Part shown: one piece after another, positions 25,735-52,024 of the stretch
Numbering within the stretch: the first letter of the stretch is position 1
Layout: each line of letters begins with the position of its first letter
Assembly (NCBI GenBank): GCA_964487045.1
Contig: CAZAOT010000001.1
Span: 4,875-68,874, forward strand
Source: an uncultured Candidatus Saccharibacteria bacterium
GTDB taxonomy: Bacteria > Patescibacteriota > UBA1384 > DTJR01
DNA: 64,000 bases
Reading direction: 5' to 3'
The notes under the pieces: model-generated
What the model was told of the DNA's origin: nothing
Seen by the model: the letters and a program-made list of their open reading frames with translations, nothing else
The model's database searches: none
Made by a program: the position numbers and the translations under genes

Positions 25735-25742
25735 TAAAAAAA

Positions 25743-30804: not shown

Positions 30805-30822
30805 GCTATGCTCGGTCTTACA

Positions 30823-30860
30823 CGGGCTCCCGGAAGTTTTCCGGGAGCCCGTTTCTTTTT
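30823..30860 (+). terminator. intrinsic terminator (shared with convergent gene)
   Basis: CGGGCTCCCGG (30823-30833) pairs with CCGGGAGCCCG (30841-30851), followed by TTTCTTTTTT. Confidence 0.8.
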
Positions 30861-31729
30861 TAGTACAAATCTAACTTTGGTTTTTTCTTTTGATAATTTG
30901 CGAATGCTTTTTTCCAACTTTTTGACCAGTAACCGGGCTTCTTGCGGTAATCTTCAAACAGAAATAATCCGCAGTACGGACAAAGTTTCTCCAATTGTTC
31001 GCGCATCGAATCTTTATCCTCTGGCAGAGTTTTTCTTCCTAAATTGAAGCCCATAATTCGATCAATTGATCCAGCATTCGGGCAAGCATAATAGCCGTGC
31101 TTGGTAAGTGATTTGCCGCACTGGTTTAGAACTAGGCAGCCATTTCTAAAATCTGCATCCTTATATCGTTTGCGATCTCGAGGTGCAGCGTTGATAGAGA
31201 TAAAGTAGCCGTGTATTTGAGAGGTCTTTTTATTGTTTTGGATAATTATGCCTTCTGGCAACTTTTTAATCTCATCTTGAACTTTTTTACCGACCCCATT
31301 GGTGATGATTTTAATTTCTGATTTTGGTGAAAAATCGCGTTTATATTTTAAAAGCAAGCGAAACATCCCCATAGTTTCTGGTTCGAGCGTTGATTCTCCG
31401 CCATAAACCGTTATCCTTCCCCATTTCTTACCCGCTTTTTTCGACTCGGAAATAAATTTTTTCACTTGCTCAATCGTCATTTTCTCGCGCGATGGAGCTT
31501 GGCGACACATCTGAGAGCAGTCGTAACATTTGAGGTTGCAATGATAGGTGGTGATTAAATCTACTTTATTAGGGTCGCTTCTGTAAGCATAACCAAGTAT
31601 CTTGGTCACTCTAGGATTGATTCGAAAACGGTGCCAATTATCTTTTAAGAAAAAATAGCTCCAGCGAGCAGCTTTTTTCAGTGGTTTTATTCTATATACT
31701 ATCTTCCGAACAAAAAAGTTTTCTGTCAC
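30860..31729 (-). CDS. radical SAM protein
   Basis: 289 aa with CNLKCYDC (CxxxCxxC). AT-rich native composition. Confidence 0.75.
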   Translation of the reverse strand: MTENFFVRKIVYRIKPLKKAARWSYFFLKDNWHRFRINPRVTKILGYAYRSDPNKVDLITTYHCNLKCYDCSQMCRQAPSREKMTIEQVKKFISESKKAGKKWGRITVYGGESTLEPETMGMFRLLLKYKRDFSPKSEIKIITNGVGKKVQDEIKKLPEGIIIQNNKKTSQIHGYFISINAAPRDRKRYKDADFRNGCLVLNQCGKSLTKHGYYACPNAGSIDRIMGFNLGRKTLPEDKDSMREQLEKLCPYCGLFLFEDYRKKPGYWSKSWKKAFANYQKKKPKLDLY

Positions 31730-36828: not shown

Positions 36829-37220
36829 ATATCGATTCTGCTATAATTAATCTGTACTAATTTTTCTGCAAAACATTTACTTCTGCGTGAAGTATCTCAA
36901 AAGAGGGGGCACCCCGATTAAATTTACATATTTAACGGGTCGAGGTGACGTACTTTTTTCGCCTAAAATCTGATAGGTAATCGTTCAGTCTCGCCTGGCA
37001 CCCTATTGCATAGCGCGATAGAACTATCACAAGTCTAACAACCTCTTTTTGCTCGCTTTGTTAAAGTCGAAATCATTTCTTTGGTTTTTACAAAGTAGAG
37101 CTAAGCGAAACCAGTCGCTATTATTAGTTTTTTGTTCGAAGGAGGGGAAAATTCGGCAATTGTTTTGTTAGTGATTTTTTTCATACTAATGAGTGGGCGG
37201 TAAGATTTTAAAAAATATTT

Positions 37221-37264
37221 AAACAAAAGAGGCGGGAGCGAAGGGGTTGCCCTTCGCTCCCGCC
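37221..37264 (-). terminator. intrinsic terminator of the GC-rich small-protein operon
   Basis: GGCGGGAGCGAAGGG pairs with CCCTTCGCTCCCGCC (37231-37264), followed on the minus strand by TCTTTTGTTT. Confidence 0.8.
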
Positions 37265-37270
37265 GGGATG

Positions 37271-37423
37271 CTACGCGCTTTTCGCGCGCTTGATGTGGTA
37301 GGCGAGTGAGATGATGGCGCACACCCCACAGAAGAATGGGATTGCGCGTATGTGCTCACCTCCATAGGCCTCAATAAGGCCGCCAGTGACCAGCGATAGA
37401 ATCGAATAGCCCAGAAGACTCAT
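37271..37423 (-). CDS. 50-aa two-TM peptide (gene D of GC-rich operon)
   Basis: MSLLGYSILSLVTGGLIEAYGGEHIRAIPFFCGVCAIISLAYHIKRAKSA. RBS TAGGAG overlaps the stop of gene C. Not in the ORF track because of its size. Confidence 0.55.
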   Translation of the reverse strand: MSLLGYSILSLVTGGLIEAYGGEHIRAIPFFCGVCAIISLAYHIKRAKSA

Positions 37424-37433
37424 CGTGATACTC

Positions 37434-37709
37434 CTATTCTAATCCCAGAGTTGCTCCGCCGGCAAAGCGGCGTTCTGTTTCAGCGAGGAGAGCCTTTCCC
37501 TCGATCGTCACCATGTTGTCCGACATGATTCCTTGCTTGTCTGGACAAATGATGAGTTCTGCTTCGCCTGTCAGTCTGACTTCAGCGGAACTCGTTTCCG
37601 CTATCTCGACAAAAAGAGGTGGCTCGTGTGAGCCAGACTTATTCTTCAGACAGACCCAGATACGCGAGCCGACAGGTTGGCGCCTGAGGTCGAAGAAGTT
37701 TAGCTTCAC
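37434..37709 (-). CDS. 91-aa soluble protein (gene C of GC-rich operon)
   Basis: GTG at 37709, preceded by GAGGAGG. GTGA start/stop overlap with gene B. VKLNFFDLRRQPVGSRIWVCLKNK... No family recognised. Confidence 0.6.
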   Translation of the reverse strand: MKLNFFDLRRQPVGSRIWVCLKNKSGSHEPPLFVEIAETSSAEVRLTGEAELIICPDKQGIMSDNMVTIEGKALLAETERRFAGGATLGLE

Positions 37710-37927
37710 GCTACCTCCTCGCTTGACGCTTCGGCTGTTTCTTCTCTTCTTCCTCTGAACGAAGAGATGATGGCAAGGCCGCCACAGAAGATGCAATTGC
37801 CGCTTGCGAGGAGAGTCACTGAGACTGGCACGTCCTGCTTGATGTAGAGAATACCGAGCAGGACAAGTCCCATGGCGATTAGTCCGAGACCGCTAAGGAT
37901 CAGGCTTATATCCGGTTTGTATTTCAT
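37706..37927 (-). CDS. 73-aa two-TM protein (gene B of GC-rich operon)
   Basis: MKYKPDISLILSGLGLIAMGLVLLGILYIK...NCIFCGGLAIISSF. RBS AAGGGAAAG. Starts 15 nt after the gene A stop. Confidence 0.65.
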   Translation of the reverse strand: MKYKPDISLILSGLGLIAMGLVLLGILYIKQDVPVSVTLLASGNCIFCGGLAIISSFRGRREETAEASSEEVA

Positions 37928-37942
37928 TGGTGCTTTCCCTTT

Positions 37943-38077
37943 CTAGCGCGTGAATGCGAACTGGGGAAGGTGCTGCCAGGCGAGAGCAATGGCAGCACAG
38001 AAGATGATCACTAGTCCTACCAAGGCGAGGTAGGCCGGCAGATTGTGCCTTTCTGATTCTAGGAATCTTAGTCGCAT
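37943..38077 (-). CDS. 44-aa single-TM peptide (gene A of GC-rich operon)
   Basis: MRLRFLESERHNLPAYLALVGLVIIFCAAIALAWQHLPQFAFTR. RBS AGGGAGAGGG lies 3 nt upstream of the ATG at 38077. Confidence 0.5.
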   Translation of the reverse strand: MRLRFLESERHNLPAYLALVGLVIIFCAAIALAWQHLPQFAFTR

Positions 38078-38204
38078 GATCCCTCTCCCTATGTCAAGTT
38101 TCTTGTGTTTTACAGAATTAGGATATTTTACATCAAAAAACCCACCTTATCAAGGGTGGGCGATCATTATTTGATCAGATCATGATATATTAAATGTCTT
38201 AGTC

Positions 38205-38244: not shown

Positions 38245-38321
38245 GCACCCGTAGCTCAGCTGGATAGAGCGTTGGCTTGCGGAGCCAAAGGTCGTAGGTT
38301 CGAATCCTATCGGGTGTACCA
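38245..38321 (+). tRNA. tRNA-Arg (anticodon GCG)
   Basis: 77 nt. Acceptor GCACCCG/CGGGTGT, D arm with A20, anticodon arm TTGGC-TTGCGGA-GCCAA, T arm GTAGG-TTCGAAT-CCTAT, encoded CCA. Its last 6 nt are also the first 6 nt of IR-A. Confidence 0.9.
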
Positions 38322-39776
38322 GTACGGAAATGTCAAATTTTGGGAGTTTGCGCCGCCTGCGGCGGCGACTAAATTGTAGGGAATTTTTGCTTCAAAATGC
38401 CACTTTCGATTCTGTAAGAAATGGTTCGAGCCGATATTTTTGAGAAATGTTAGAATTTCCGAATAATCTTCGGAATTTTTTAGTTTATCTGCTTTGGCAA
38501 GCGATAAAATGAACTCTTTGGCCGGTTCGAGCCAAGACAATCCTTTTTGTTCAAAATCTGTAATTTTTTCGTTAATCTCCAGCTTTTCGCTAAGTAGCTT
38601 TTGTTTTCGCAAAGTATATTCTTCGGTTGTAATGACTTCGCTCAGATATACATCGAGTAATTTTTCAAGCTGTTTCGTAATTTCTTCGAGCTTTACTTTG
38701 AGATTTTGAACAGAAGTTTTAGCCAACGTTCTTGCTTGAGTTTCTTGTTTCTCTAATTCAAACAAAACTTTTTTGGTATCTTGGCTCGACAAAGAAACTT
38801 TTTGTAAATACCCATTTATTTGCTCAACGAGTTTTTCTTCTCGCAGATAATGCTTTTCTTGGCAACCACTTTTCTTTTTTGTGCATCGGTAATAGTTGTG
38901 GCCTTTTTGTATTTCGGCAGTAATCGCACAGCCGCAACTTTTACATTTCATAAGCCCAAGAAAAGCAAAATGATGTTTTTCCTTTTTGCGAGGCTTGCCA
39001 CGATCTTTCAATACTTCTTGGCATTTATCAAAAAGTTTCTTTGGGATTATCGGTTTGTGTTTTCCTTCGTATATTTCGCCGTTATATTTCATTAGCCCAA
39101 TGTAGAAAATATTTTGTAGAATTGAATTGATATTGCTGATAGAAATCCTCTTGTTGAGATTCCCGAATAACATGTCATCTTCCGCCCAATTTGCGAGAGA
39201 ATTAAAGGTATATTTGCCGGTTGAATAGAGCTCAAAAAGCTTTCTGACTTTTCTAACCTTTATTTCGTCGACATCAATATTTCTTGTTCTCGGATTATTT
39301 ATATAGCCAACCGGCGCCCAGCCGGGCCAAACTCCATTTCGTATTTTTTGCCTTAACCCTCGTTTTACATTCTCTCGCAAATTGTCTACAAAATATTTTG
39401 ATTGACCAAAAGCAATGTTCAACATGAAAATCCCTTGAGGTGTTGGTTCAAACCAGAACGAAGGAAAACACAAGGATTTGATTTTCTGCCGGTCTATCAT
39501 GTGGATTATCTTTCCACCGTCTACACTATTTCTTGCTAACCTGTCAGGGTGCCAACTCAAAATCCCTTCCGCCTTTCCTTTTTCGATCAATTCTAACATT
39601 TCAGCGAACTTCGTTCGACCAGGTTCTTTGGCAGTTTTGGCTTCGCACAGCGAAGCGACAATTTCAAGTTTTTCTTTGGCGGCAAATTCCCGAAGCTCAA
39701 CTAGTTGAGCTTCAATCGAAAGAACTTGTCTGTCATCATCTTCAGTACTTTTGCGAGCGTAAATTATGTAGCGCAT
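38307..39776 (-). CDS. large serine recombinase (integrase)
   Basis: 489 aa from the ATG at 39776 (RBS AAAGGAGG).
- MRYIIYARKSTEDDDRQVLSIEAQ resolvase catalytic domain (Ser10).
- Recombinase domain, zinc ribbon CKSCGC...YYRC...C, and a coiled-coil.
- AT-rich.
- The last roughly 36 codons lie in IR-A, and the stop lies inside the tRNA. Confidence 0.9.
   Translation of the reverse strand: MRYIIYARKSTEDDDRQVLSIEAQLVELREFAAKEKLEIVASLCEAKTAKEPGRTKFAEMLELIEKGKAEGILSWHPDRLARNSVDGGKIIHMIDRQKIKSLCFPSFWFEPTPQGIFMLNIAFGQSKYFVDNLRENVKRGLRQKIRNGVWPGWAPVGYINNPRTRNIDVDEIKVRKVRKLFELYSTGKYTFNSLANWAEDDMLFGNLNKRISISNINSILQNIFYIGLMKYNGEIYEGKHKPIIPKKLFDKCQEVLKDRGKPRKKEKHHFAFLGLMKCKSCGCAITAEIQKGHNYYRCTKKKSGCQEKHYLREEKLVEQINGYLQKVSLSSQDTKKVLFELEKQETQARTLAKTSVQNLKVKLEEITKQLEKLLDVYLSEVITTEEYTLRKQKLLSEKLEINEKITDFEQKGLSWLEPAKEFILSLAKADKLKNSEDYSEILTFLKNIGSNHFLQNRKWHFEAKIPYNLVAAAGGANSQNLTFPYWYTR
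38316..38415 (+). repeat. IR-A, left copy (100 bp)
   Basis: Manual base-by-base comparison with the reverse complement of 39817-39916 gives 98/100 identical (mismatches at 38398 and 38407). Contains the palindrome CGCCGCCTGCGGCGGCG. Confidence 0.9.
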
Positions 39777-39816
39777 TTTCCTCCTTTTAATTTCATAAAA
39801 ATTTTCTTTTACAATC

Positions 39817-39916
39817 ACAGAATCAAAAGTGGCAATTTGAAGCAAAAATTCCCTACAATTTAGTCGCCGCCGCAGGCGGCGCAAACTCCCAAAATTTGAC
39901 ATTTCCGTACTGGTAC
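39817..39916 (-). repeat. IR-A, right copy (100 bp, inverted)
   Basis: Reverse complement of 38316-38415 with 2 mismatches. Lies upstream of the recombinase start. Its outer 7 nt (CTGGTAC) are shared with IR-B. Confidence 0.9.
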
Positions 39917-40004
39917 TCTATCCTGAAAATTGTTCGAACGTATTTTGGCCGCGAAGCGGCCGAGAAAACACCCCCGAAAATTCCCGACTGAAATTCTGAA
40001 CTTT
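39910..40004 (+). repeat. IR-B, left copy (95 bp)
   Basis: Manual comparison with the reverse complement of 40970-41064 gives 95/95 identical. Contains the hairpin GGCCGCGAAGCGGCC. Confidence 0.92.
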
Positions 40005-40133
40005 CAAAACTGCCAAAGAATCTGTTTCAAAAATATCGGCTCGAATCCATTAGTTTGTAAAAGAAAATTTTTATTAATTCAATCAGCACTGATTGATTTT
40101 TTATTCTTCTTGGTATATGCTTTTATTCAACAA

Positions 40134-40175
40134 TCGAAAGCAGAAATATTGAGTTTCTCAATTTCCTGCTTTCGA
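40134..40175 (+). promoter_or_regulatory. long imperfect hairpin upstream of the cargo gene
   Basis: TCGAAAGCAGAAATATTGAG, loop TTT, then CTCAATTTCCTGCTTTCGA: a roughly 19-bp stem with small bulges. An alternative CCTGCTT/AAGCAGG stem lies at 40165-40181. Sits about 37 nt before the cargo RBS. Confidence 0.4.
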
Positions 40176-40225
40176 AGCAGGAAAATCTCTGTACAGGCCA
40201 CAAGGCCGTGCAAGGAGTGAGAACA

Positions 40226-40846
40226 TTGTCTAAGGTCAACAGTATCCAGCTCACGTGTCTCAAGCCGAATGACTGTTCCACCCGACTTGCTCTTCCCGAA
40301 GTCACCTACGACTTTCGGGTGTGGGCTATCATCAACGACCTTGAGAAGGCCGTTGAGAAGGCGGGCGGTGCAACGCTCGCAGTCTTCGCGGGTGTTCCGT
40401 GGGAGTACGGGAGCCGCTCGGTCAACTTTCTCAACTATGTGGCCGAGATGGTGGTGAGAACAAACCGCGGCAAAGGGGAATTCATCGGAAGAAGCTATCT
40501 TGCGAGTGGCGGGATGTCACGGCTCGCAAGCTTGATGAAGGACGTTCGGCCAGACGGACAGATCAGAGCTGTGGTCGACCAAATCACGCGAACAATCTGG
40601 TCCGACCAGCCGATCCCGCGCGGTTTGCCCGACAATCTCTGGTACGAGCAGACGGACTACGAGTCGTTCTGCATCAAGTCGGGCAAAGGTGACATCATCA
40701 GGTGGGTTCCCGAGAATCAAGTTCAGGAGGAGCGGACGATGGGATTTCTCCGCTTGGAGTTTGAGGAGCCCTCTGTCAAGCACTTCTGTCAGCTAATTCA
40801 ACAGCTACATCGCTTTCCGGGTGTGGCCGAGTTCGCCAACGGCTAG
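40226..40846 (+). CDS. orphan GC-rich cargo protein of the recombinase element
   Basis: About 206 aa from the TTG at 40226 (AAGGAG 8 nt upstream); GTG at 40208 or 40217 are alternative starts. G/C-ending codon bias. No family recognised. Followed by a terminator. Confidence 0.65.
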   Translation: MSKVNSIQLTCLKPNDCSTRLALPEVTYDFRVWAIINDLEKAVEKAGGATLAVFAGVPWEYGSRSVNFLNYVAEMVVRTNRGKGEFIGRSYLASGGMSRLASLMKDVRPDGQIRAVVDQITRTIWSDQPIPRGLPDNLWYEQTDYESFCIKSGKGDIIRWVPENQVQEERTMGFLRLEFEEPSVKHFCQLIQQLHRFPGVAEFANG

Positions 40847-40869
40847 CTGTAGACCGGAGTACAAGCAAC

Positions 40870-40898
40870 AGGCAGACCAGCAGTGGCCTGCCTTTTTT
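40870..40898 (+). terminator. intrinsic terminator after cargo gene
   Basis: AGGCAGACC pairs with GGCCTGCCT (one mismatch), followed by TTTTTCTT. Confidence 0.6.
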
Positions 40899-40969
40899 CT
40901 TGCCGCCAAAGGAGAAATCTGCTAAGATTTCTCTAGTGAGCGAAGCTCACTAAAAAACTTGAAATTGTC

Positions 40970-41064
40970 AAAGTTCAGAATTTCAGTCGGGAATTTTCGG
41001 GGGTGTTTTCTCGGCCGCTTCGCGGCCAAAATACGTTCGAACAATTTTCAGGATAGAGTACCAG
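40970..41064 (-). repeat. IR-B, right copy (95 bp, inverted)
   Basis: Perfect reverse complement of 39910-40004. Ends with GTACCAG at 41058-41064. Confidence 0.92.
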
Positions 41065-41186
41065 AATAAAATTTGCCCCTCGCGGGCTAATTTTATTATT
41101 TGGGAACCATAGGATTCGAAGGCCGCAGCGAGCGTAGGCGAGCGAGGCGGGGTCGATGAATTTGCCAGCAGGCAAATATCAGTGAC

Positions 41187-41208
41187 CGAATCCTATCGGG
41201 TGTACCAG
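41187..41208 (+). repeat. direct repeat of tRNA-Arg 3' end (att-type site)
   Basis: 22/22 identical to 38301-38322. Followed by hairpin ATATGAC...GTCATAT plus T8 (41210-41248). Confidence 0.85.
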
Positions 41209-43750: not shown

Positions 43751-44179
43751 ATGTGTAAGAAACTGATATTTGCTAGTACGCTGGCACCGAAACTCTACTG
43801 CTTGTGCACACCGAGTGAGGAGTTGCTGGAGGTCTTGCTTGAGCGTGCCAAGGACGATGAGTGTCGCGCCGAGCCACTTATGGTGGCCGAACAGGAGATC
43901 GAGTTCGGGCCAGCCAACTATCTTTATGACGAGGCCCGCATGCGCGTCTGTGAGGCTAGTGCAGGCATGGCTACGGTCATGATCCAGGTCGGTAGTCATG
44001 CTGATGGAATTCGATCAGTGCTTGTGCCTGTTGGCGAGAAGGAGGGTGATGACGAAGCCCTGCCTGAAGGGGCTTTGATGCCAGGTATCGGTTGCCCGAT
44101 GGAATGTCTGCTGGGCCTGGGGCTGTTTTGTCTCGTGATCAAAGGCGGCATTTGCGCCGTCCATTATCTGCTCGGCTAA
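43751..44179 (+). CDS. orphan Cys-rich protein with C-terminal TM helix (GC-rich island 6)
   Basis: 142 aa. RBS GAGGAGAGAG. C-terminus GIGCPMECLLGLGLFCLVIKGGICAVHYLLG. Confidence 0.6.
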   Translation: MCKKLIFASTLAPKLYCLCTPSEELLEVLLERAKDDECRAEPLMVAEQEIEFGPANYLYDEARMRVCEASAGMATVMIQVGSHADGIRSVLVPVGEKEGDDEALPEGALMPGIGCPMECLLGLGLFCLVIKGGICAVHYLLG

Positions 44180-44200
44180 TGGCCGGGAGGGGAGTACAGC

Positions 44201-44512
44201 ATGTCTTTGTTTGGCAAAAAGGGAGAGCCGAAGCCGCCTAAGGTGAGGAAGGAGCGCAAGCCGCGCGCTCCGATCACCAAGGAGCGAGTCTTTGAAGGGT
44301 TGTTGGCTTTTGGCCGCAACCTGTTGCTGGTAGTGACCGTCGTAGGCATCTTGGCGCTCTCGGCGCTCGTCTACGTCCTGTTCCAGAAGATCGGCGGCGG
44401 CAGTAGCGACCCAGCAACGAAGAACCTGATTCTCGTCGCGACTGCGATGACGGCCGGAGGCGGCTTTTTCACGCTCTGGCTCGGCCGCACCTGGGGCATC
44501 ATCCCGTACTAG
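44201..44512 (+). CDS. orphan two-TM protein with Lys/Arg-rich N-terminus (GC-rich island 6)
   Basis: 103 aa. RBS GGGAGGGGAG lies 6 nt upstream of the ATG. Followed by a strong terminator. Confidence 0.65.
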   Translation: MSLFGKKGEPKPPKVRKERKPRAPITKERVFEGLLAFGRNLLLVVTVVGILALSALVYVLFQKIGGGSSDPATKNLILVATAMTAGGGFFTLWLGRTWGIIPY

Positions 44513-44535
44513 GGCTGATGCCTGCGAGCATCTTT

Positions 44536-44576
44536 GGCGGTTTGTCCGGTCACCCGGACAAACCGCCTTCTTTTTT
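44536..44576 (+). terminator. intrinsic terminator
   Basis: GGCGGTTTGTCCGG (44536-44549), loop TCAC, CCGGACAAACCGCC (44554-44567), then TTCTTTTTT. Confidence 0.85.
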
Positions 44577-44582
44577 AAAAAC

Positions 44583-44603
44583 AAAAAAATCGCCCTTTGG
44601 CGA
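44583..44603 (-). terminator. intrinsic terminator of the valS-TPR operon
   Basis: TCGCC (44590-44594) pairs with GGCGA (44599-44603), with a T7 run on the minus strand. Confidence 0.5.
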
Positions 44604-44644
44604 AATAGAGTTCTCTCGTTCTTAGCTCTTAGTTTTTAGTTTTT

Positions 44645-45286
44645 TTATCCTCCAATTTCAGTCTCGAAACCAAATTGTTTGGCTTTGGCGAACTCCTTCT
44701 TGGCGGTTGTATTGTCTTTTAGCTCTTGATAGGTGAGGGATAGAAGATAATGGGCTTGGCCGCAAAGAGGATCGATTTTAAGAGCTTGCTCGAAGGCCGT
44801 TTTAGCCTCATCAAATTTGTTAGCAACCAGAAGAACATGGCCTTGATTGATATATCCATCGCGCCACGAAGCATCTTTTTCAACTGCCAATCTTGCCGCT
44901 GCTTCGGCTCGTTCTACGTCTTTATTTTTCAAAAACTGCTCAGAAAGGGCGACAAATCCTAGGGCATCAGTAGCCTGCGAAGCAACTTCTGCTTTAATTT
45001 TAGTAATATGCTCTTCATAGGTTTGTTTTTGCGCTACCATTGCCGCTTCGTTTGATTTGGCCGAGTATTCATAAACTGACTTAATACCAATATAACTCAT
45101 CACGATCAAGGCAAAGACTCCAAGAACCAAACCGATGCCCTTAAAGGGCACCTTTTTCAAATTTATCGAAGTTATTAGGTCAATTGGCGAGTATTTAAAT
45201 GAAGAAAAAGAGGTAGCTGATTTTCGGTTGTGATGTAATTCGGCTTTTAATTGAGCCGAAAGATGATACGACTTTAGATTATTCAT
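44645..45286 (-). CDS. membrane-anchored TPR-repeat protein
   Basis: About 213 aa from the Met at 45286 (MNNLKSYHLS...); the longer track ORF would overlap valS. One TM helix and C-terminal TPR units (AKTAFEQALKIDPLCGQAHYLLSLTY). Confidence 0.7.
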   Translation of the reverse strand: MNNLKSYHLSAQLKAELHHNRKSATSFSSFKYSPIDLITSINLKKVPFKGIGLVLGVFALIVMSYIGIKSVYEYSAKSNEAAMVAQKQTYEEHITKIKAEVASQATDALGFVALSEQFLKNKDVERAEAAARLAVEKDASWRDGYINQGHVLLVANKFDEAKTAFEQALKIDPLCGQAHYLLSLTYQELKDNTTAKKEFAKAKQFGFETEIGG

Positions 45287-45321: not shown

Positions 45322-47427
45322 TCAGAGAGCTGGCCAGGAAGCGTCGATGAGCATTTTGCTCTCTCGTTGCTCCTCGGGTAGCTCTTGCCAACATGCTTCA
45401 GTTACAAACGGCATGTATGGGTGAAGCAATTTCAAGCTTGTTTTCAATATTTTTGTAAGCTTTAAGAGAGACGTCTTTTTTTCTCGTTCATCGCCGCCAT
45501 AAAGACGTTTCTTTTCCTGCTCTATAATCTTATCAGCAAACTCATGCCAAATATAAGCGTACAAATGTTCGCCTGCTTGTGAAAATTTAAACTCATCGAT
45601 CAGTTTTGTAACTTCTGAAGTAACCTTATCCAGATTCTCTATATCTTTTTTATCTTGATCTGAAAAATTAGATTCCTCAGTATCAATTTCAATATTTTCC
45701 AGATTTGTTACTACAAATCTGGCAATATTCCAAATCTTGTTTGAAAAATTACGATACCCTCTGATTTTGCTTTCACCAAGGGCTATATCCTGACCTGCGG
45801 TAGTTCCGACAATCAAGGAATATCTCAGGGCGTCGGCGCCGTATTTTTCGATAATATCTATTGGATCAATCACGTTGCCAAGAGATTTGGACATCTTGCG
45901 ATTCTTTTCGTCCCTTACGAGGCCATGCAGGTAAACAGTCTCAAAAGGAGCTTTGCCTGTCAGCTCTAATCCCATCATGATCATCCTGGCGACCCAGAAA
46001 AACAAGATGTCATAACCTGTTTCCATGACTGTTGTTGGGTAGAAGTTCTTGTAATCTTCAGCATCTTTGTCTGGCCAGCCAAGAGTGGAGAATGGCCAAA
46101 GTCCACTTGAGAACCAAGTATCGAGTACATCTTCTTCTTGCACCCAGCCGTCACCCTCGGGAGCTTTTTTGCCAACATAAATTTCTTCTCCCTTATACCA
46201 AACCGGAATTTGGTGGCCCCACCAGAGTTGGCGCGAGATACACCAGTCGCGTATATTATCCATCCAATGGAAGTAAACTTTTTCAAAACGCTTTGGCATA
46301 ATTTTGATCTCGCCTGACTCCACCGTTTTTTTGGCTTTCTCGGTGAGTGGTTTCATCTTTACGAACCATTGCTTTGATGGAATTGGTTCAATTTGACCAC
46401 CGCAGCGGTAACAAGTGGCTATATTATGTTCGTAATTTTCTTCAATATGATCGATTAGACCCATTTTCTGCATATCTTCGACAATTGCTTCGCGAGCCTC
46501 CTTGGTCTTCATGCCGGTATATTTACCGGTGTTCTCCATCATGCGGCCGTTTTCGTCTATCACTTGTTTAAGTGGAATATCGTTGCGCTGAGCAATTTCA
46601 AAATCAACCAAGGAGTGAGCAGGGGTAACCTTGATCGCACCTGTGCCGAATTTTGGGTCGACGGCGTTATCAGCGACGACAACAATTTCAAAATCTCCCA
46701 GTACTCCCGGAATCATAAATTTCTTGCCAACCATATCCTTATATCTCTTATCGGTTGGGTGAACGGCGACTGCAGTGTCGCCAAGCTTTGTCTCTGGTCT
46801 AGCGGTAGCTAAGGTAAATGGACCATATTTAATCCAGTAGAATTTGCCAACTTCTGGTTTGTGCTCAACTTCATCATCGGCAATTGCGGTGTGGCAGCGG
46901 GGGCACCAGTTAACTGTGCGCAGCCCCTGATAAATAAGTCCCTTATCGTATAAATTTACAAATGCTTCTTTGACTGCTTCGGATAGTCCCTCGTCTAGGG
47001 TAAAGCGTTCTCTTGTCCAGTCACAGGAAGCACCAAGTTTTCTAATTTGAGAGGTGATAGTATTGCCGTATTCTTCTTTCCATTGCCAAACTCGCTCCAC
47101 AAACTTTTCACGTCCTAAGTCGTGTCGCCTCAAACCTTCTTTGGAAAGTTGCTTTTCGACAACATTTTGAGTGGCGATGCCAGCGTGGTCAGTTCCGGGA
47201 AGCCAAAGAGTTGGTTCTCCCCTCATGCGATGGTAGCGAGCCATAATGTCCTCGAGCGTTACGTACATACCATGGCCGATATGAAGTTTGCCGGTCACGT
47301 TTGGCGGAGGCATCGAAATAACAAAAGGTTTTTTACCTTCTTCTATTTTTGGAGTGAAGGATCCGCTATCTTCCCATTTTTTATATATTTCGTCTTCAAA
47401 AACTTTGTGGTTGTAAGCCTTATCCAT
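45322..47427 (-). CDS. valS: valine--tRNA ligase (short form)
   Basis: About 701 aa from MDKAYNHKVFEDEIY. PPPNVTGKLHIGH (HIGH), PGTDHAGIATQ and KMSKS motifs. Confidence 0.9.
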   Translation of the reverse strand: MDKAYNHKVFEDEIYKKWEDSGSFTPKIEEGKKPFVISMPPPNVTGKLHIGHGMYVTLEDIMARYHRMRGEPTLWLPGTDHAGIATQNVVEKQLSKEGLRRHDLGREKFVERVWQWKEEYGNTITSQIRKLGASCDWTRERFTLDEGLSEAVKEAFVNLYDKGLIYQGLRTVNWCPRCHTAIADDEVEHKPEVGKFYWIKYGPFTLATARPETKLGDTAVAVHPTDKRYKDMVGKKFMIPGVLGDFEIVVVADNAVDPKFGTGAIKVTPAHSLVDFEIAQRNDIPLKQVIDENGRMMENTGKYTGMKTKEAREAIVEDMQKMGLIDHIEENYEHNIATCYRCGGQIEPIPSKQWFVKMKPLTEKAKKTVESGEIKIMPKRFEKVYFHWMDNIRDWCISRQLWWGHQIPVWYKGEEIYVGKKAPEGDGWVQEEDVLDTWFSSGLWPFSTLGWPDKDAEDYKNFYPTTVMETGYDILFFWVARMIMMGLELTGKAPFETVYLHGLVRDEKNRKMSKSLGNVIDPIDIIEKYGADALRYSLIVGTTAGQDIALGESKIRGYRNFSNKIWNIARFVVTNLENIEIDTEESNFSDQDKKDIENLDKVTSEVTKLIDEFKFSQAGEHLYAYIWHEFADKIIEQEKKRLYGGDEREKKTSLLKLTKILKTSLKLLHPYMPFVTEACWQELPEEQRESKMLIDASWPAL

Positions 47428-47495
47428 AGGTTTAATATTAGCGCAATTCAAGGAGAAAACAAGATGAAACTGTGAAAGCTGGAAGCAATTAGTGA

Positions 47496-47524
47496 TTGAC
47501 TAATTATTACTCTTGAGCTATATT
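47496..47524 (+). promoter_or_regulatory. sigma70-type promoter of GC-rich island 7
   Basis: TTGACT (47496-47501), exactly 17 nt, then TATATT (47519-47524). Confidence 0.65.
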
Positions 47525-47575
47525 TTCAGGATTGAGTGCCCCTTATGGGGCCCAAAGGACATTGAGGTGATGGCG

Positions 47576-48730
47576 ATGCGAATCGGCATGTTCACTTTGA
47601 CTTATGGAAGGTCTAACGGCGTGGCCGTCTCCGTCGCCAATCTGAGCCGCGCGCTTCGCGAAGCCGGCCATGAAGTTCATATCTTCGGGCCAAGCGGTGT
47701 GGCGGATACAGACGAATTCTACCATCCGTTCGTGACGGTGCGATTTCCCCAGGCTCCGGACTATCCGGTGCCAATACCGAACTTCCTGCGTGCTCTCAAG
47801 ATAGCGCGTCGGTACAATCTTAAGCTTATGCACACTCACCATCCTTGGCTGCTCGGCAGTGATGCGGTGAGGGTGGCGCGCGAGCTGGAGGTGCCGGTAG
47901 TTTCCACGGTGCACACTCAGTATGATTTCTACTCCGAGCTTTTCCCGTGGATTCCGAGCAAATGGAAGCGCAAAGCGCTGCATTGGGTGCTCAGGCGTCA
48001 CCTCTGCAGTGTCGATCTGGTGACGACGCCGGGCATTGGTTCCAAGGCGCGCCTGGATGACATGCAGCTGACTACGCCGGTTCGTCTCGTCACCAACGGC
48101 ACCGACCTGTCGCTCTTCGGGTATGGCGGCGCCAACGAAATCAGACGCCAGCTCAGAATTCCGGAAGGCGCCCAGGTCTTCGGCTATGTTGGCCGGTTCG
48201 ATCCCGAAAAAGATCTCGGCACCCTGATCGATGCGGCGGCTAAAGTGTTCAAATGGCATCCGCGAGCCGTGCTGCTCATGGTCGGCGACGGTAAAGAGCG
48301 CGAATCGCTCGAGTGGAAATCCAAACCGCTCGGCAACCGAGTCATCTTCACCGGCCGAATTGCCCACGAGCAAATCGCGCCCTACTACAGCGCGATGGAT
48401 ATCTTCGTCACGCCGAGTAGGTTCGAGGTTCAGCCGATGACCATCGCCGAAGCGTTTGCCAGCGGTTTGCCGGTCGTTGCTTTGGATGTGCCTGGCAGCG
48501 AGATGGTCCATCACGGCTACAACGGCCTGCTCGTGGATCCAGCCCAACCGGTAAGCGCCCTGGCTCGAGGAGTCAGTCAGATCTTTAGCGACCCATTCCG
48601 ACATCTGACGCTACAGGGCCACGCCAGAGAGTCGGCGCGGCAGTACGAAACCGCCGAAGCTTTGTCACAGATGCTCAGTGCCTACCAAGACGCCGGCTAC
48701 TTCTGCCGCACTCGTCAGTCGTCCGTCTAA
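47576..48730 (+). CDS. GT4 glycosyltransferase, GC-rich copy (diacylglycerol glycosyltransferase-like branch)
   Basis: About 384 aa from MRIGMFTLTY (GAGGTG RBS; ATG at 47570 is an alternative start). Motifs NGVAVS, GHEVHIFGP, TVHTQYDFY, VDLVTTPG, EVQPMTIAEA. Resembles alMGS/CpoA-type GT4 (from memory). Confidence 0.8.
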   Translation: MRIGMFTLTYGRSNGVAVSVANLSRALREAGHEVHIFGPSGVADTDEFYHPFVTVRFPQAPDYPVPIPNFLRALKIARRYNLKLMHTHHPWLLGSDAVRVARELEVPVVSTVHTQYDFYSELFPWIPSKWKRKALHWVLRRHLCSVDLVTTPGIGSKARLDDMQLTTPVRLVTNGTDLSLFGYGGANEIRRQLRIPEGAQVFGYVGRFDPEKDLGTLIDAAAKVFKWHPRAVLLMVGDGKERESLEWKSKPLGNRVIFTGRIAHEQIAPYYSAMDIFVTPSRFEVQPMTIAEAFASGLPVVALDVPGSEMVHHGYNGLLVDPAQPVSALARGVSQIFSDPFRHLTLQGHARESARQYETAEALSQMLSAYQDAGYFCRTRQSSV

Positions 48731-48746
48731 CAAGTAATGGTTCCGT

Positions 48747-48778
48747 GGCCGGAGGTTCGCCTCCGGCCTGTTTTTTTT
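48747..48778 (+). terminator. intrinsic terminator
   Basis: GGCCGGAGG (48747-48755), loop TTCG, CCTCCGGCC (48760-48768), then TGTTTTTTTT. Confidence 0.85.
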
Positions 48779-48803
48779 GAAAAAAGGTTCTACAATTAGG
48801 GTG

Positions 48804-49958
48804 ATGAAGATCGCAATTTTTACTAATACCTATTGGCCAACTGTAAATGGCGTAGCTGTTTCGGCGACTAATTTGCGCGAAGGACTCATTCAGCTTGGAC
48901 ATGAGGTTTTTATCTTTGCGCCAGACGACGAAGATTTGAAGAAGTTGAAAGAACAGGCTAACGTTTATCGCTATCCATCTTTCAATATTAAAGAAATTGC
49001 TGATTATGAATTGGCGCTTCCGTCCTTGAAGATTAATGAAGTTTTAGATAAAAATTCCTTTGATATCGTGCACAGCGAACATCCGCTCTGGATAGGAAAG
49101 TGGGGGATGAATTATGCCAAAAAAACCAATACCCCGATTATTACAACCGTTCATACTCAGTACGATCTCTACGCCAAATTAATACCGCTACCCCAGGGAA
49201 TTTTGGTACCAATTTTACATAAAAATCTTAATCGATATTTAAATAATGTTGATTTAGTGACGACTCCAGGGGAGGGATCGAAGCAAAGGCTGATTGAGCA
49301 AGGAGTGAAGACGCCGATCAGGGTGGTTTCAAACGCGACCGATCTCAGTAGGTACTGGAAGGCCAAAGGAGATAAGGTACGCCGTGAGCTGACTAACAAT
49401 AATGAGAAATTGATTGGGTTTGTCGGGCGGCTATCGAAGGAAAAAGACGTTTCTGTCTTACTTGATGCAATGAATCTTATTTTAAATAAAATGCCTGATA
49501 GTAAGCTCATTTTGATTGGTGATGGTCCGGATAGAAAAGAGCTCGAGGAAAAAGCCAAAACTATTTCAAACAAAATTGTTTTTCTTGGCAAAATTGATCA
49601 TAAACAAATCCCTGATTATTATGCCTCCTTTGATATTTTTCTCTCGGCTAGCCAGTCGGAGGTTCAGCCAATGACTTTTGCCGAAGCGATGGCAACCGGT
49701 ACGCCGATTGTTGTTTTTAATGTTGCTGGTTGTAATGATATGGTGAAAAATCGCGAGAATGGACTATTGATTGACCCTAAAAAGGGCGCCCAGGGATTGG
49801 CAGATGCGGTGACAAAGATTTTAGTAAACGAAAAAGAGTTAAAAAAATTAAGCTCTCAGGCTAGAAAATGGGCCAGCCGCTATGATCTGATGACGGCGAC
49901 CAAAGATATGGTTGAAGCCTATGAGCAGGCAATCAAGATTCACTCAAACAAGAACTAA
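48804..49958 (+). CDS. GT4 glycosyltransferase, AT-rich copy (same subfamily as 47576-48730)
   Basis: About 384 aa from MKIAIFTNTY. Shares NGVAVS, GHEVFIFAP, TVHTQYDLY, VDLVTTPG and EVQPMTFAEA with the upstream GC-rich gene. Confidence 0.85.
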   Translation: MKIAIFTNTYWPTVNGVAVSATNLREGLIQLGHEVFIFAPDDEDLKKLKEQANVYRYPSFNIKEIADYELALPSLKINEVLDKNSFDIVHSEHPLWIGKWGMNYAKKTNTPIITTVHTQYDLYAKLIPLPQGILVPILHKNLNRYLNNVDLVTTPGEGSKQRLIEQGVKTPIRVVSNATDLSRYWKAKGDKVRRELTNNNEKLIGFVGRLSKEKDVSVLLDAMNLILNKMPDSKLILIGDGPDRKELEEKAKTISNKIVFLGKIDHKQIPDYYASFDIFLSASQSEVQPMTFAEAMATGTPIVVFNVAGCNDMVKNRENGLLIDPKKGAQGLADAVTKILVNEKELKKLSSQARKWASRYDLMTATKDMVEAYEQAIKIHSNKN

Positions 49959-51079: not shown

Positions 51080-51244
51080 TTTTATAGATCCTTCGACAAG
51101 CTCAGGATTAAAATGCCTTTTTAATTTTCTATTAAAACATTTTCAATTTAACAAAATTAAGGGGTTACCACAACTATTTGCTTGAAAATCGTCTGAAGGG
51201 TGTTAATTTTAATATAGATTCGGGGACCGAAGGGTAGGTGATAG

Positions 51245-51538
51245 ATGAAACTAGCATTTGTCCGCACTGAGAAGGGCTGGCAGCGAGGTTACTTCAGCGG
51301 AAGGATGCTGGTCGTAGGAGACAGCAAGCCAATCTCTGAAGTAGAGGCCAGAAGGCAGCTCAGCTTGCCAGGGGAAACGATCGTCAAGGTGATCGTTTCA
51401 GACCAAGTCTTTCGCGCCTATGACGTACTGATGAGACGGGACGATATGAAACCGGAGCAGGTCCAAATGGGTCTGCTGCCAAAGCCTGACAAACCCCGAA
51501 GAGGGTGCTTGATGTGGTTTCTTCCGCGCCATCATTGA
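51245..51538 (+). CDS. orphan 97-aa protein (GC-rich island 8)
   Basis: RBS AAGGGTAGGTGA, then the ATG. GC-rich codons. Followed by a hairpin terminator. Confidence 0.55.
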   Translation: MKLAFVRTEKGWQRGYFSGRMLVVGDSKPISEVEARRQLSLPGETIVKVIVSDQVFRAYDVLMRRDDMKPEQVQMGLLPKPDKPRRGCLMWFLPRHH

Positions 51539-51551
51539 TCCCGAATCTTAC

Positions 51552-51592
51552 AAGGGACGCTCCGCCTTGTGCGGTACGTCCCTTTTCCTTTT
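51552..51592 (+). terminator. intrinsic terminator between convergent island-8 genes
   Basis: AAGGGACG (51552-51559) pairs with CGTCCCTT (51577-51584), followed by TTCCTTTT. Confidence 0.6.
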
Positions 51593-51648
51593 AAAAGTAA
51601 AACGCCCCCCGGACCGTTGGCTCGGGGCATGAGGTTGGCTGGCCGGTG

Positions 51649-51924: not shown

Positions 51925-51966
51925 CCTTTCTGTTCTGTTGCCAGATTGTCAAAACGCGATCTGGAT

Positions 51967-51995: not shown

Positions 51996-52024
51996 GCGTA
52001 TGGTTTCGATAATATAGTCGGTTT

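Follow-up and report, generated by a model that had tools for sequence, protein, structure and literature searches.

Phage-type large serine integrases, such as the Listeria A118/LI integrase, Bxb1 and phiC31, have a Resolvase, Recombinase and zinc-ribbon/coiled-coil architecture, and their integrated elements are flanked by direct hybrid sites. Both features are also found at a locus in the 64-kb stretch of DNA that was analysed here (the window), in which a gene for a large serine recombinase (LSR) and a single cargo gene are each enclosed by an inverted repeat (IR-A and IR-B, respectively). The direct hybrid sites are sites 1 and 3 in Table 1, and the same arrangement is evident from a comparison of two related loci, L083 and L050 (see below). 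There are several differences, however, from the phage-type systems. The element here keeps a second complete attP, which is inverted and internal. Only the left half of attB, located in a tRNA gene, is conserved, many tRNA isotypes are used, and the arms are ~100 bp, far above an attP of ~50 bp. In addition, the element is 2.7 kb long, without phage genes or a visible directionality factor, and the recombinase ORF runs through an att site.

The yeast 2-micron plasmid has two unique segments between inverted repeats that contain the target of Flp (FRT), and one of the segments encodes Flp. Concerted evolution is seen for the two repeat copies. Acting on identical sites, Flp, a tyrosine recombinase, flips the segments and amplifies an autonomous circular replicon that has an origin and partition genes. 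The putative free form of the element here shares only the repeat layout with this plasmid. It has no origin or replication gene, it carries an LSR and one variable gene, and the orientation of its interior is almost fixed.

Tn4451 and Tn5397 are small non-phage elements with a large serine recombinase (TnpX and TndX, respectively) and a circular intermediate. A promoter assembled across their joined ends drives the recombinase, the ends carry a GA dinucleotide, and tRNA genes are not targeted. In comparison, the element here has a duplicated inverted att site, and its junction promoter is directed at the cargo module rather than at the recombinase gene.

In integrons, a conserved platform with a promoter expresses single cassettes of unrelated function. 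The element here has a similar design, and the multi-cassette arrays of integrons, with their repeated spacer, can be likened to two related loci (L081 and L067). On the other hand, there is no IntI tyrosine recombinase and no attI or attC in the element, the only recombinase being a serine enzyme. The borders of the cassette are fragments of the recombinase gene and the B arms, there is usually one cassette, and the whole platform is mobile and tRNA-targeted. In Hin/Gin invertase switches, a serine recombinase gene lies within inverted repeats containing the crossover site, as it does here. However, the Hin/Gin/Pin invertases are small (~190 aa, with a C-terminal helix-turn-helix) and use ~26-bp sites and an enhancer, whereas the enzyme here is a 489-aa integrase-type LSR. 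Both orientations coexist in these switches, whereas among the related loci compared here the cargo is flipped in 0/42 cases and the LSR module in 2 of ~60.

Tycheposons are reportedly multi-kilobase, tRNA-targeting islands, mostly with tyrosine integrases and with direct repeats of the tRNA end. Integration at tRNA 3′ ends and variable cargo are shared with the element here. We are not aware of any report of a single-gene slot or an inverted att copy within these islands. The literature searched contains no description of the element or of its two-part layout, in agreement with the initial annotation of this DNA, whose author knew of no such system.

Overall organization of the element

The region 38316–41064 is probably a single integrative element of ~2.7–2.75 kb, located at the 3′ end of tRNA-Arg(GCG) and encoding the LSR, with IR-B bounding its cargo half. 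The layout is tRNA/A–LSR–A′/B–cargo–B′/X, with slashes at the junctions, and the mobile unit would be the whole two-gene block. An Rfam scan matched the tRNA alone.

Table 1. Features of the element and its surroundings (positions in the window).
Feature	Position	Strand	Comment
tRNA-Arg(GCG)	38245–38321	+	ARAGORN; Rfam tRNA 69.8 bits
LSR gene, 489 aa	38307–39776	-	ORF crosses attL, stops within antisense tRNA
Site 1, attL (T/A), core GTACCAG	38316–38322	+	Predicted crossover dinucleotide GT (N71-N72)
IR-A left arm (A arm)	38316–38415		Minus strand is the last ~33 recombinase codons (...NLTFPYW)
Promoter-like block P (TTGTAAAAGAAAATTTTTAT)	39787–39814	-	Upstream of LSR RBS; conserved across loci
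IR-A right arm	39817–39916		Non-coding copy of A arm
Junction promoter, sigma-70-like, across A/B	39896–39924	+	TTGACA, 17 nt, TATCCT; points into cargo module
Site 2, core of complete internal attP (B/A)	39910–39916	-	Inverted relative to sites 1 and 3
IR-B left arm (B arm, outward from core)	39910–40004		GTTCGAAC at attP ZD-motif position; GGCCGC/GCGGCC palindrome
Conserved 5′ framework	40005–40102	+	Inverted repeats; alignment of 39 loci
Variable cassette	40103–40896	+	No homology to cargo of related elements
Orphan cargo ORF	40232–40846	+	204 aa from TTG; 212 aa from GTG at 40208; own RBS
Cargo terminator, hairpin and T-run	40870–40899	+	From sequence; stem detection reported it on the minus strand
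Conserved 3′ framework	40897–40969	+	Matches recombinase codons 30–43 (TTGCCGCCAAAG...AAAAACTTGAAATTGTC)
IR-B right arm (B arm, toward core)	40970–41064		P-type left half of attR
Site 3, attR (B/X), core GTACCAG	41058–41064	+	Direct orientation with site 1
Original tRNA trailer (X) and relic copy of 3′ end	41065–41208	+	X starts with a terminator-like hairpin

The LSR has the Pfam domains PF00239 Resolvase (5.7e-22), PF07508 Recombinase (5.8e-14) and PF13408 Zn_ribbon_recom (1.1e-06). In the YARKST motif, Tyr6, Arg8, Lys9 and Ser10 are invariant among 30 homologues, and Ala7 and Thr11 are nearly so. More than 7800 homologues are found at ~70–87% identity. Among solved structures, sequence comparison matches the catalytic domain alone. 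The G+C content of the LSR gene is 38%, compared to 50% for the enclosed cargo segment.

The two arms of IR-B are reverse complements at 95/95 positions by direct base comparison, exactly as first annotated. Beyond 95 bp the identity falls off gradually, and a repeat search gives the pair a length of 100 nt with 98% identity. The arms of IR-A have 81 perfect positions, followed by 3 mismatches by ~100 nt. IR-B adjoins the ~100-bp IR-A around the recombinase gene, and the core GTACCAG is common to both. Copies of the core start at 38316 and 41058 on the plus strand and its complement at 39910, where it belongs to both repeats, so that the contact of the two repeats through a shared 7-nt core was also described correctly. 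A fourth copy starts at 41202 (+). The unequal lengths of IR-A and IR-B and their ragged inner ends indicate that they are not a k-mer artefact. The longest of the other inverted repeats in the window have at most 32 nt and at most 89% identity, and a chance origin of IR-A and IR-B is excluded, as nothing else in the 64 kb exceeds 32 nt. A function of the arm hairpin as a terminator was ruled out, with no T-run on either strand.

The att sites

The T-arm, acceptor end and CCA of tRNA-Arg(GCG) constitute the left half-site of attB (T). As judged from its sequence, the B arm is an attP-type left half-site that mimics these same parts of the tRNA, and the A arm is the right half of attP, doubling as the coding sequence for the C-terminus of the LSR. 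The distance from the start of the GTTCGA motif to N71 is 18 nt in the tRNA, where the motif belongs to the T-loop, and 23 nt in the B arm. This offset of 5 bp is found in 35/36 loci, for the left half-sites only. In serine integrases, the distal ZD motif is likewise nearer to the crossover in attB than in attP, by 5 bp (PMC3783163). With the crossover at N71-N72 and positions numbered as for the LI integrase, the motif occupies positions 11–19 in the tRNA and 16–24 in the B arm, which are the ZD-motif windows of attB and attP, respectively, for the LI integrase (PMC3783163). By analogy with these windows, the crossover is predicted to be at N71-N72.

The shortest core that sites 1, 2 and 3 share always includes N71-N72, and this dinucleotide co-varies with the target tRNA (GC, CC, GT, AC and CA). 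The common core is non-palindromic in the GT, CC and AC classes, and the sites would therefore have a real polarity. With attL and attR in direct orientation and the middle site a complete inverted attP, IR-A and IR-B are the halves of one inverted attP duplication. This duplication covers a region of ~190 bp, and its internal copy is located between two divergently placed genes. The ZD motif is absent from the right halves of both attP (A) and attB (X), and the sites are thus less symmetric than in the integrases that have been studied.

Another possibility is that each module arose by integration of a circle whose att site is perfectly palindromic. This was rejected, as the common core lacks a palindromic dinucleotide in the CCACCA and AC classes. 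Such an arrangement fits the window only with a TA crossover within GTAC, and it also fits the GC class. A crossover of this kind conflicts with the ZD-motif positions, which place it at N71-N72 (GT in the window). Terminal inverted repeats with a target-site duplication were also rejected, since the core copies are inverted and are part of the repeat. The modules differ in this from an insertion sequence or MITE, as there is no direct target-site duplication at their ends.

In its free form, the element would be circular, with a length of ~2.7 kb and two attP sites in inverted orientation. The LSR is predicted to catalyse recombination between attP and the tRNA at N71-N72, a circular form of the element is expected, and gene conversion would keep the two attP copies identical. 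One half of a dual-attP circle was among the readings offered in the initial annotation for the cargo module, and it is the best fit. It agrees with the attP geometry of the B arm, the direct orientation of sites 1 and 3 and the intact inverted site 2; the circle itself was not found. None of the contigs has a ~190-nt inverted repeat or the terminal overlap of a circular form, and all 70 contigs with IR-A carry single-arm repeats (~100 nt) rather than the ~190 nt expected of a circle. No family member was found in IMG/VR, and no empty allele of the source genome was seen. No recombination directionality factor is visible; the LSR gene is the only one in the conserved part, and the cargo differs between elements. 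We know of no common sequence signature for such factors.

Downstream of the element, positions 41187–41208 are an exact second copy of 22 nt of the 3′ end of tRNA-Arg, as a direct repeat (26 nt including the shared start of the trailer, AATA). This copy lies outside the present element and is probably a relic of an earlier insertion.

The cargo module

The segment between the IR-B arms has 965 bp, a G+C content of 50% and one long ORF, which is preceded by AAGGAG upstream of its TTG start. The initial description of a GC-rich orphan gene of about this length, with its own ribosome-binding site and terminator, is borne out. The cargo slot consists of the B arms, short fragments derived from the recombinase gene and a promoter, with a different gene inside in each element. 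The junction promoter is split by the A/B junction, with the 17-nt spacing kept in 54/60 loci, and it is absent at the A/tRNA junction.

The 5′ framework contains fragments that match recombinase codons 47–52 (40005–40024) and ~445–452 (40027–40045). It also contains an inverted copy of block P (40055–40082) and a terminator-like hairpin (40079–40103). In the 3′ framework of the window, the recombinase fragment is broken by two small hairpins. Between the frameworks, the variability of the cassette was established by BLAST of the window against four related loci (L003, L006, L001 and L002) and by an all-against-all comparison of the cargo. The homology of the window to L003 stops at ~40103.

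The cargo protein has no match in Pfam or PADLOC. A remote-homology search, by word search of 5.8 billion proteins and HMMER on 1.84 billion representatives, gave no family for it, finding the identical protein (one database copy) and a weak repeat match (P0122). The single-sequence AlphaFold model has a pLDDT of 33.

Related elements

The comparison is based on 83 non-redundant related loci from candidate-phyla-radiation bacteria. IR-A is present in 70/83 loci, with a median length of 100 nt and 99% identity. Repeats like IR-B were sought around other cargo genes in relatives, as the initial annotation had proposed, and among the 34 loci whose sequence extends 1.3 kb or more upstream of IR-A, 31 have them. 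An unbroken ORF encodes the LSR in 74/76 loci. The 3′ end of a tRNA, of 10 isotypes in all, is located at the LSR 3′ arm in 47/83 loci, and a tRNA is found at the 5′ arm in one locus only (L046). With two identical attP sites on a circle, either could be used, and yet the observed ratio is 47 to 1; selection or another asymmetry is therefore needed.

In L083, the two-module block lies exactly between tRNA-Arg(tct) and tRNA-Val(tac). These two tRNA genes are only 12 nt apart in L050, the empty counterpart. In three other loci (L053, L064 and L075), the next tRNA is 2–5 nt from the end of the cargo. The comparison of empty and occupied sites indicates that the cargo and the recombinase insert together, as one unit.

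No two of the 40 distinct elements that were compared have the same cargo, and the cargo proteins are unrelated even between elements whose LSR genes have 92% nucleotide identity. They include SDR, GNAT, NUDIX, subtilase, racemase, asparaginase, HisG and DHODH proteins, many secreted proteins, and orphans. The orientation of the cargo framework relative to the LSR is identical in 42/42 modules, as read from assembled consensus sequences, in which a minor flipped subpopulation would escape. The flipped LSR modules are those of L058 and L046, and inversion between the ~100-bp arms thus occurs at least rarely.

Extra modules are arranged in arrays in L092, L091, L024 and L057. The three-module array of L092 is not associated with any tRNA, and arrays of this type are not products of simple integration. 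Their formation by homologous inversion between two elements was rejected, as it predicts equally many LSR modules between two tRNAs and none was found. Complex arrays or collapsed palindromes are present in L081, L067 and L092, and the first two have several cassettes with a repeated, palindrome-centred spacer between them.

Alternative explanations

The locus could consist of two elements side by side, an autonomous LSR element (IR-A) and a MITE-like, non-autonomous cargo element (IR-B), that were inserted separately, each at the tRNA end. Both modules have an inverted repeat of their own at their borders, pieces of the LSR gene are found in the cargo framework, as in deletion derivatives, and the extra-module arrays point in the same direction. 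Moreover, GC or TA at N71-N72 would be a palindromic crossover that permits such joins. Against this, the cores at the module ends are inverted rather than direct, and the GT, CC and AC classes have no palindromic dinucleotide, so that a single module cannot come from the integration of a one-site circle. The two modules are found together, in the same order and orientation, in 31/34 informative loci, and the loci surveyed contain no solo LSR module between a tRNA and its trailer and no solo cargo module beside a tRNA. This explanation is unlikely. The related proposal in the initial annotation, that the cargo module is a non-autonomous element mobilised by the neighbouring recombinase, holds in that the cargo moves with the recombinase. 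It fails in that the two insert as one unit and the cargo would not be excised alone: with inverted cores at its ends and a predicted crossover dinucleotide (GT) that is non-palindromic, conservative recombination could flip the module but not excise it.

A rather improbable alternative is that the ancestral element had one attP and that the internal site was created by an inversion after integration, by the recombinase or by homologous recombination, and then copied vertically as a by-product. The complex arrays and collapsed palindromes described above demonstrate that rearrangements do occur. However, the internal site is placed identically, between divergent promoter-like blocks, with 10 tRNA isotypes and in LSR lineages that are ~70% identical, and this recurrence indicates that the site is passed on with the element as part of its design, rather than created by chance at one locus.

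It is very unlikely that the cargo module is a phase-variable cassette, in which the recombinase or homology between the arms flips the segment 40005–40969 and toggles expression of the cargo, as was suggested at first. A recombinase gene next to perfect inverted repeats is suggestive of such a switch, and so are the two flipped LSR modules. On the other hand, no cargo framework is flipped in the 42 related loci. Block P is inside the module and the junction promoter is at its border, at the internal attP, and a flip would not cut the gene off from block P. Moreover, site 2 is of the attP type and site 3 of the attR type, and serine integrases do not recombine attP with attR (PMC3783163).

Although assemblers can create or mis-orient perfect inverted repeats near the read length, a fold-back chimera, raised as a concern in the initial annotation, is hardly conceivable as the source of the repeats, since 70 independent contigs from many projects and assemblers share the architecture, the IR-B junctions (both inner ones and the outer one on the right) recur in independent Logan unitigs, the two repeats are unequal with ragged inner ends, and the junction sequences follow the logic of att sites. 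The existence of the repeats is thereby secured against such an artefact; the orientation of the segment is that of the assembled sequence.

In the Logan data, the cargo is found at 100% identity in assemblies of two other runs. One unitig (L087, from SRR11845624) ends 30 nt into each IR-B arm, and a flank unitig (L086) begins within the right arm, 30 nt from its outer end, which is the behaviour expected of a k=31 graph at a true repeat. Another unitig (L088, from SRR29243437) spans 40018–40954, short of both arms. With the flanking gene and P0121 as queries, only short unitigs were returned.

A possible vehicle for single genes

Returning to the reading as one integrative element with an inverted internal attP, the family may, tentatively, represent an undescribed class of minimal 'gene-cassette shuttles' that is abundant in candidate-phyla-radiation bacteria and is characterised by a dual-attP circle, an integrase that reads the T-loop, an exchanged single gene and a retained attP. 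Such an element would have ~2.5–3.5 kb and, when free, would be a circle with two-fold symmetry and a pair of inverted attP sites. The serine integrase would use the universal tRNA T-loop as its zinc-ribbon motif; because this loop is universal, many tRNA genes could be entered, with the choice made through the N71-N72 dinucleotide. The element would supply the CCA end in some genomes, and it would carry one very rapidly exchanged accessory gene in an integron-like slot. The retained internal attP would offer an integrase-only route to module flipping, tandem arrays and chromosomal rearrangement, without a directionality factor.

If this is correct, the elements would be a vehicle for horizontal transfer of single genes among bacteria whose genomes are tiny and in which few mobile elements have been recognised, and would help to explain the patchy accessory metabolism of candidate-phyla-radiation bacteria. 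The family would also be a source of natural attP/attB pairs in the thousands, with the tRNA T-loop as the attB motif and the target apparently set by two bases. As attL, attR and an intact attP are combined in the same molecule, the elements are a natural experiment on the pairing rules behind the unidirectionality of serine integrases. Compact integrases directed at the tRNA 3′ end, which is present in every genome, would be of practical interest for genome engineering. Since assemblies break at the ~100-bp inverted repeats, the elements probably suffer from incomplete assembly and from mis-annotation under the plain name 'recombinase family protein'. Many contigs stop ~100 bp from the LSR gene.

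Inverted repeats and their cores

The element (2.75 kb) consists of two adjacent modules at the 3′ end of a tRNA-Arg(GCG) gene, each enclosed by an inverted repeat. IR-A brackets the gene of the large serine recombinase (LSR), and IR-B brackets the cargo. In the direction of the tRNA gene, the layout is T/A – LSR(−) – A′/B – cargo(+) – B′/X, where T is the tRNA end, X the trailer, and A and B the repeat arms. Base-by-base comparison confirms the initial annotation of IR-B, with exact reverse complementarity at 95 of 95 positions. The identity falls off beyond 95 nt, and a repeat finder stretches the pair to 100 nt at 98%. IR-A matches perfectly over 81 positions, and three mismatches have accumulated by ~100 nt. 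The 7-nt core GTACCAG is present in IR-B as claimed, and also in IR-A. Its copies at the T/A junction (site 1, attL), the B/A junction (site 2, internal attP) and the B/X junction (site 3, attR) have the orientations +, − and +, and there is a fourth copy downstream. No inverted repeat longer than 32 nt is found in the 64-kb window other than IR-A and IR-B, which excludes a chance origin of these two.

The cargo is found at 100% identity in independent Logan assemblies of two other sequencing runs. The unitig L087 runs 30 nt into each IR-B arm before it ends, and L086, a unitig of the flank, likewise includes just the outermost 30 nt of the right arm. A k=31 graph breaks in this way when a repeat is genuine.

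Features of the element and its surroundings, with positions in the window
Feature	Position	Strand	Remarks
G+C islands	24000-26000, 28000-31000, 37000-38000, 44000-45000, 47000-49000, 51000-52000		
tRNA-Arg(GCG)	38245-38321	+	3′ end falls inside first core
LSR gene	39776-38307	−	489 aa; Resolvase, Recombinase and Zn-ribbon domains
LSR frame from left IR-A arm to stop	38307-38415	−	
IR-A arms	38316-38415, 39817-39916		
Core GTACCAG, sites 1, 2, 3	38316, 39910, 41058	+, −, +	
Core GTACCAG, fourth copy	41202		
Terminator-like hairpin and T-run	38457-38481	+	
Palindrome GCTTCGCTGTGCGAAGC	39643-39659	−	17 nt; LSR codons 44-49
Sigma-70-like promoter across A/B junction	39896-39924	+	points into cargo module
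IR-B arms	39910-40004, 40970-41064		
B-arm palindromic element	39945-39960, 41014-41029		outside canonical attP
Framework inside left B arm	40005-40102		~100 bp
Segment unrelated to closest relatives	40103-40896		794 bp
Cargo ORF	40232-40846		
Framework inside right B arm	40897-40969		~70 bp
Two small hairpins	40911-40951		
111-bp segment region	41065-41208		downstream of element
Antisense T-arm-like piece ACCATAGGATTCGAAGG	~41108-41124		
Copy of last 22 nt of tRNA-Arg	41187-41208		

The arms reach well past a canonical attP of about 50 bp. Both contain a palindromic element roughly 30-45 nt from the crossover, in which the sequence varies and the pairing is kept (mean perfect stem of 6.2, versus 3.7 in shuffles; 21 distinct stems among 29 arms). 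The B-arm palindromes of 29 loci include GGCCGC, TCGCCGCC, TTGCGACC and T5CCGGA5, and in these loci none has a T-run on either strand. Within a locus, an arm and its second copy share 99-100% identity, versus only ~77-90% for arms of related loci. The arms thus seem to evolve in concert, probably by gene conversion between the inverted copies.

Recurrence of the layout in related loci

A total of 85 related loci were fetched, 5 from GTDB genomes and 80 from metagenomes, and 83 non-redundant ones were analyzed. Four close relatives among the GTDB loci are Ca. Berkelbacteria or Saccharibacteria MAGs. IR-A is present in 70 of the 83 loci (median 100 nt, 99% identity, 30 perfect), and the loci without it are mostly truncated by contig ends. 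A search for IR-B-like repeats around other cargo finds a pair in 31 of the 34 loci that have at least 1.3 kb upstream of IR-A. All 40 IR-B pairs (median 96.5 nt, 99% identity) enclose 0.57-3.3 kb and adjoin IR-A, with the core common to both. The LSR frame is intact in 74 of 76 loci. A convergent tRNA gene has its 3′ end in the LSR 3′ arm in 47 of the 83 loci, and ten isotypes are targeted (Leu, Arg, Ala, Gln, Ile, Val, Lys, Tyr, Met and Glu). With few exceptions, the related loci that allowed an assessment have this design, which bears on partner and target choice by serine integrases.

No member of the family is found in IMG/VR. Many metagenome contigs stop ~100-120 bp past the recombinase gene, or are about one element long. 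Inverted repeats of ~100 bp evidently break short-read assemblies, and the family is therefore likely under-assembled.

A second module type (C) is located on the LSR 3′ side in four loci (L092, 9458-12320; L091, from 9477 to the contig end; L046; L082). The perfect arms of the C modules are far longer (267 bp in L092) and enclose 2-3 kb, and the resulting three-module arrays, L092 among them, have no tRNA nearby. The B and C sites differ in their dinucleotide, GC and CC respectively. Downstream of another family member (L090, 9756-12987) are an OLD-family nuclease (AAA_15/AAA_21/TOPRIM) and an N6/N4 DNA methyltransferase, which look like defense genes associated with the element.

Geometry of the attachment sites

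For each locus, the internal site was aligned to the tRNA junction. The B arm mimics the tRNA 3′ end, but its GTTCGA motif sits five base pairs further out, starting 23 nt before N71 in place of 18 nt in the tRNA, and 35 of 36 loci show this offset. A crossover at N71-N72 would place the T-loop motif GGTTCGAnn at positions 19-11 and the B-arm motif at 24-16. The attP half-sites of the LI integrase have the zinc-ribbon motif at 16-24, and its attB half-sites have it at 11-19 (Rutherford et al. 2013, PMC3783163).

We infer that the LSR cuts at N71-N72. This dinucleotide is in every case part of the minimal core shared by sites 1, 2 and 3, and it changes with the tRNA that is targeted (GC in most Leu, Arg, Lys and Tyr genes; CC in Ala, Val and Ile; CA in Gln; GT in the window). 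Both observations are consistent with a crossover there. With a crossover at N71-N72 the sites would have a true polarity, as the dinucleotides GT, CC and AC are non-palindromic. Sites 1 and 3 are direct, and site 2 is a complete, inverted B/A site. As a result, conservative recombination would only invert a single module, and the two modules together could be excised or inserted.

Insertion as a unit is seen in the comparison of loci. The two-module block in L083 lies exactly between tRNA-Arg(tct) and tRNA-Val(tac), two genes that are 12 nt apart in L050, and 2-5 nt separate the outer end of the cargo module from the next tRNA in L053, L064 and L075. The native tRNA gene has no CCA in several genomes, and the A arm supplies it (L011, L033, L042, L083 versus L050), so that the element completes the tRNA 3′ end after insertion.

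These data are best explained if IR-A and IR-B are two halves of one inverted duplication of the attP region. Integration at the tRNA would have split one attP copy into attL and attR, and the other would remain intact between the divergently placed genes. The free form would be a circle of ~2.7 kb with two inverted attP sites. The intact inverted B/A site and the direct outer sites agree with the dual-attP circle that had been proposed for the cassette, and the circle itself was not seen. Neither a circular form nor a same-genome empty site is present in the sequences examined, and no directionality factor was seen.

A non-autonomous cargo element mobilized by its neighbor was also proposed. 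Mobilization by the LSR would fit, as the cargo inserts jointly with the recombinase; independent movement would not, as a single module should be only invertible. A phase-variable cargo switch is not supported, since the orientation of the cargo framework relative to the LSR is constant in 42 of 42 modules in the assembled consensus, and the conserved promoter-like block moves along with the module. Two loci have a flipped LSR module: the LSR 3′ end adjoins the cargo 5′ framework in L058, and a tRNA adjoins the LSR 5′ arm in L046. Exchange between the 100-bp arms therefore happens, rarely reaching consensus, and a minor flipped cargo subpopulation below the consensus is possible.

The sigma-70-like promoter at the A/B junction has its −35 element (TTGACA, TTGACT or TTGCAA) in the A arm and its −10 element (TATTCT or TATCCT) in the B arm. 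The 17-nt spacer, a length kept in 54 of 60 loci, contains the crossover. Only the attP configuration gives the complete promoter, and the A/tRNA junction of the related loci examined lacks it. Under the inverted duplication of attP, integration via one site would split one promoter copy, and the internal site would keep one aimed into the cargo.

Recombinase gene

The LSR reading frame passes the left IR-A arm, crosses the core and stops inside the antisense tRNA. Its C-terminus depends on the integration state because the ORF continues across the att site. More than 7800 full-length homologs are found at ~70-87% identity, and those with a source name are from Patescibacteria (candidate phyla radiation). 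In a protein alignment (columns 500-560), homologs are conserved up to a Trp whose codon, TGG, is the complement of CCA, and have variable tails beyond it, from the antisense tRNA T-loop ('DSN') or, in ~15%, from a B- or C-type arm.

The LSR is convergent with the tRNA in 47 loci versus the opposite orientation in 1. Possibly, tRNA read-through antisense to the LSR silences it in the common orientation, and the opposite orientation may drive LSR expression and be unstable or harmful. A hairpin on the tRNA strand, ~135 nt past the tRNA and antisense within the LSR 3′ coding region, could act as a terminator of this read-through.

Cargo module

The enclosed 965 bp are GC-rich as annotated (50% G+C, versus 38% for the recombinase gene). 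They contain one ORF, which begins with TTG, is preceded by AAGGAG and is followed by a hairpin and T-run. Its product is indeed an orphan, with no Pfam or PADLOC match and one identical database protein, and a single-sequence structure model was unusable (pLDDT 33).

Homology of the module to its closest relatives is limited to the B arms and a framework just inside them. Alignment of 39 cargo modules shows that the B arm is followed by a fragment identical to LSR codons 47-52 and then by a fragment of codons ~445-452. The promoter-like block, GTAAAAGAAAATTTTT, is an inverted copy of the block upstream of the LSR. At the opposite end of the module, LSR codons 30-43 are represented by a fragment before the other B arm. 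The palindrome GCTTCGCTGTGCGAAGC in the LSR gene occupies the exact position that the B arm has in the framework, between the fragments of codons 30-43 and 47-52. Two small hairpins (GAGAAATCT...AGATTTCTC; TAGTGAGC...GCTCACTA) interrupt the 3′ framework, and similar insertions are found at the same point in about a third of the related loci.

No two of the 40 distinct elements compared share a cargo gene, even where their LSR genes are 92% identical in nucleotides, and the G+C of the cargo gene ranges from 0.29 to 0.54. Recognizable products include a short-chain dehydrogenase, Asp/Glu racemase, GNAT acetyltransferase, asparaginase, cyclodipeptide synthase, APH-type kinase, HisG, NUDIX hydrolase, dihydroorotate dehydrogenase and subtilase. 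Secreted or membrane proteins without a known function make up many of the others. L081 and L067 have two or three cassettes inside one B-arm pair, divided by framework repeats centered on a short palindrome. The junctions in the L081 array are either the GCTTCGCTGTGCGAAGC palindrome or a collapsed B-arm remnant.

Comparison with known systems

Judged from its domain content and half-site geometry, this is an integrative element of the serine-integrase kind. Three defining features of that kind are present: the recombinase domains, the 5-bp offset of the motif (in the left half-sites) and the flanking hybrid sites in direct orientation. It resembles invertase switches, integrons, TIR/TSD transposons and 2-micron-type replicons in one respect each; their defining features are absent. 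The yeast 2-micron plasmid is a circle with two inverted sites, a layout that the proposed free form would share. To our knowledge, such a circle is not known from serine-integrase elements. A full-text literature search found no account of the family or the layout, in line with the initial annotation.

Surroundings of the element

The copy of the tRNA-Arg end downstream of the element forms, with the first four trailer bases (AATA), a 26-nt direct repeat (CGAATCCTATCGGGTGTACCAGAATA) that bounds a 111-bp segment. Within the segment are a piece similar to an antisense T-arm and a GC-rich stretch that recalls the hairpin region of the arms. An earlier insertion at the same tRNA apparently left the segment behind as a relic, outside the present element.

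The window also has islands of 1-3 kb with 49-57% G+C in a background of ~40%. None of them is flanked by long inverted repeats, and they suggest frequent gain of foreign DNA by other routes. One island (37000-38100), with small membrane-protein ORFs, is located directly upstream of the target tRNA.
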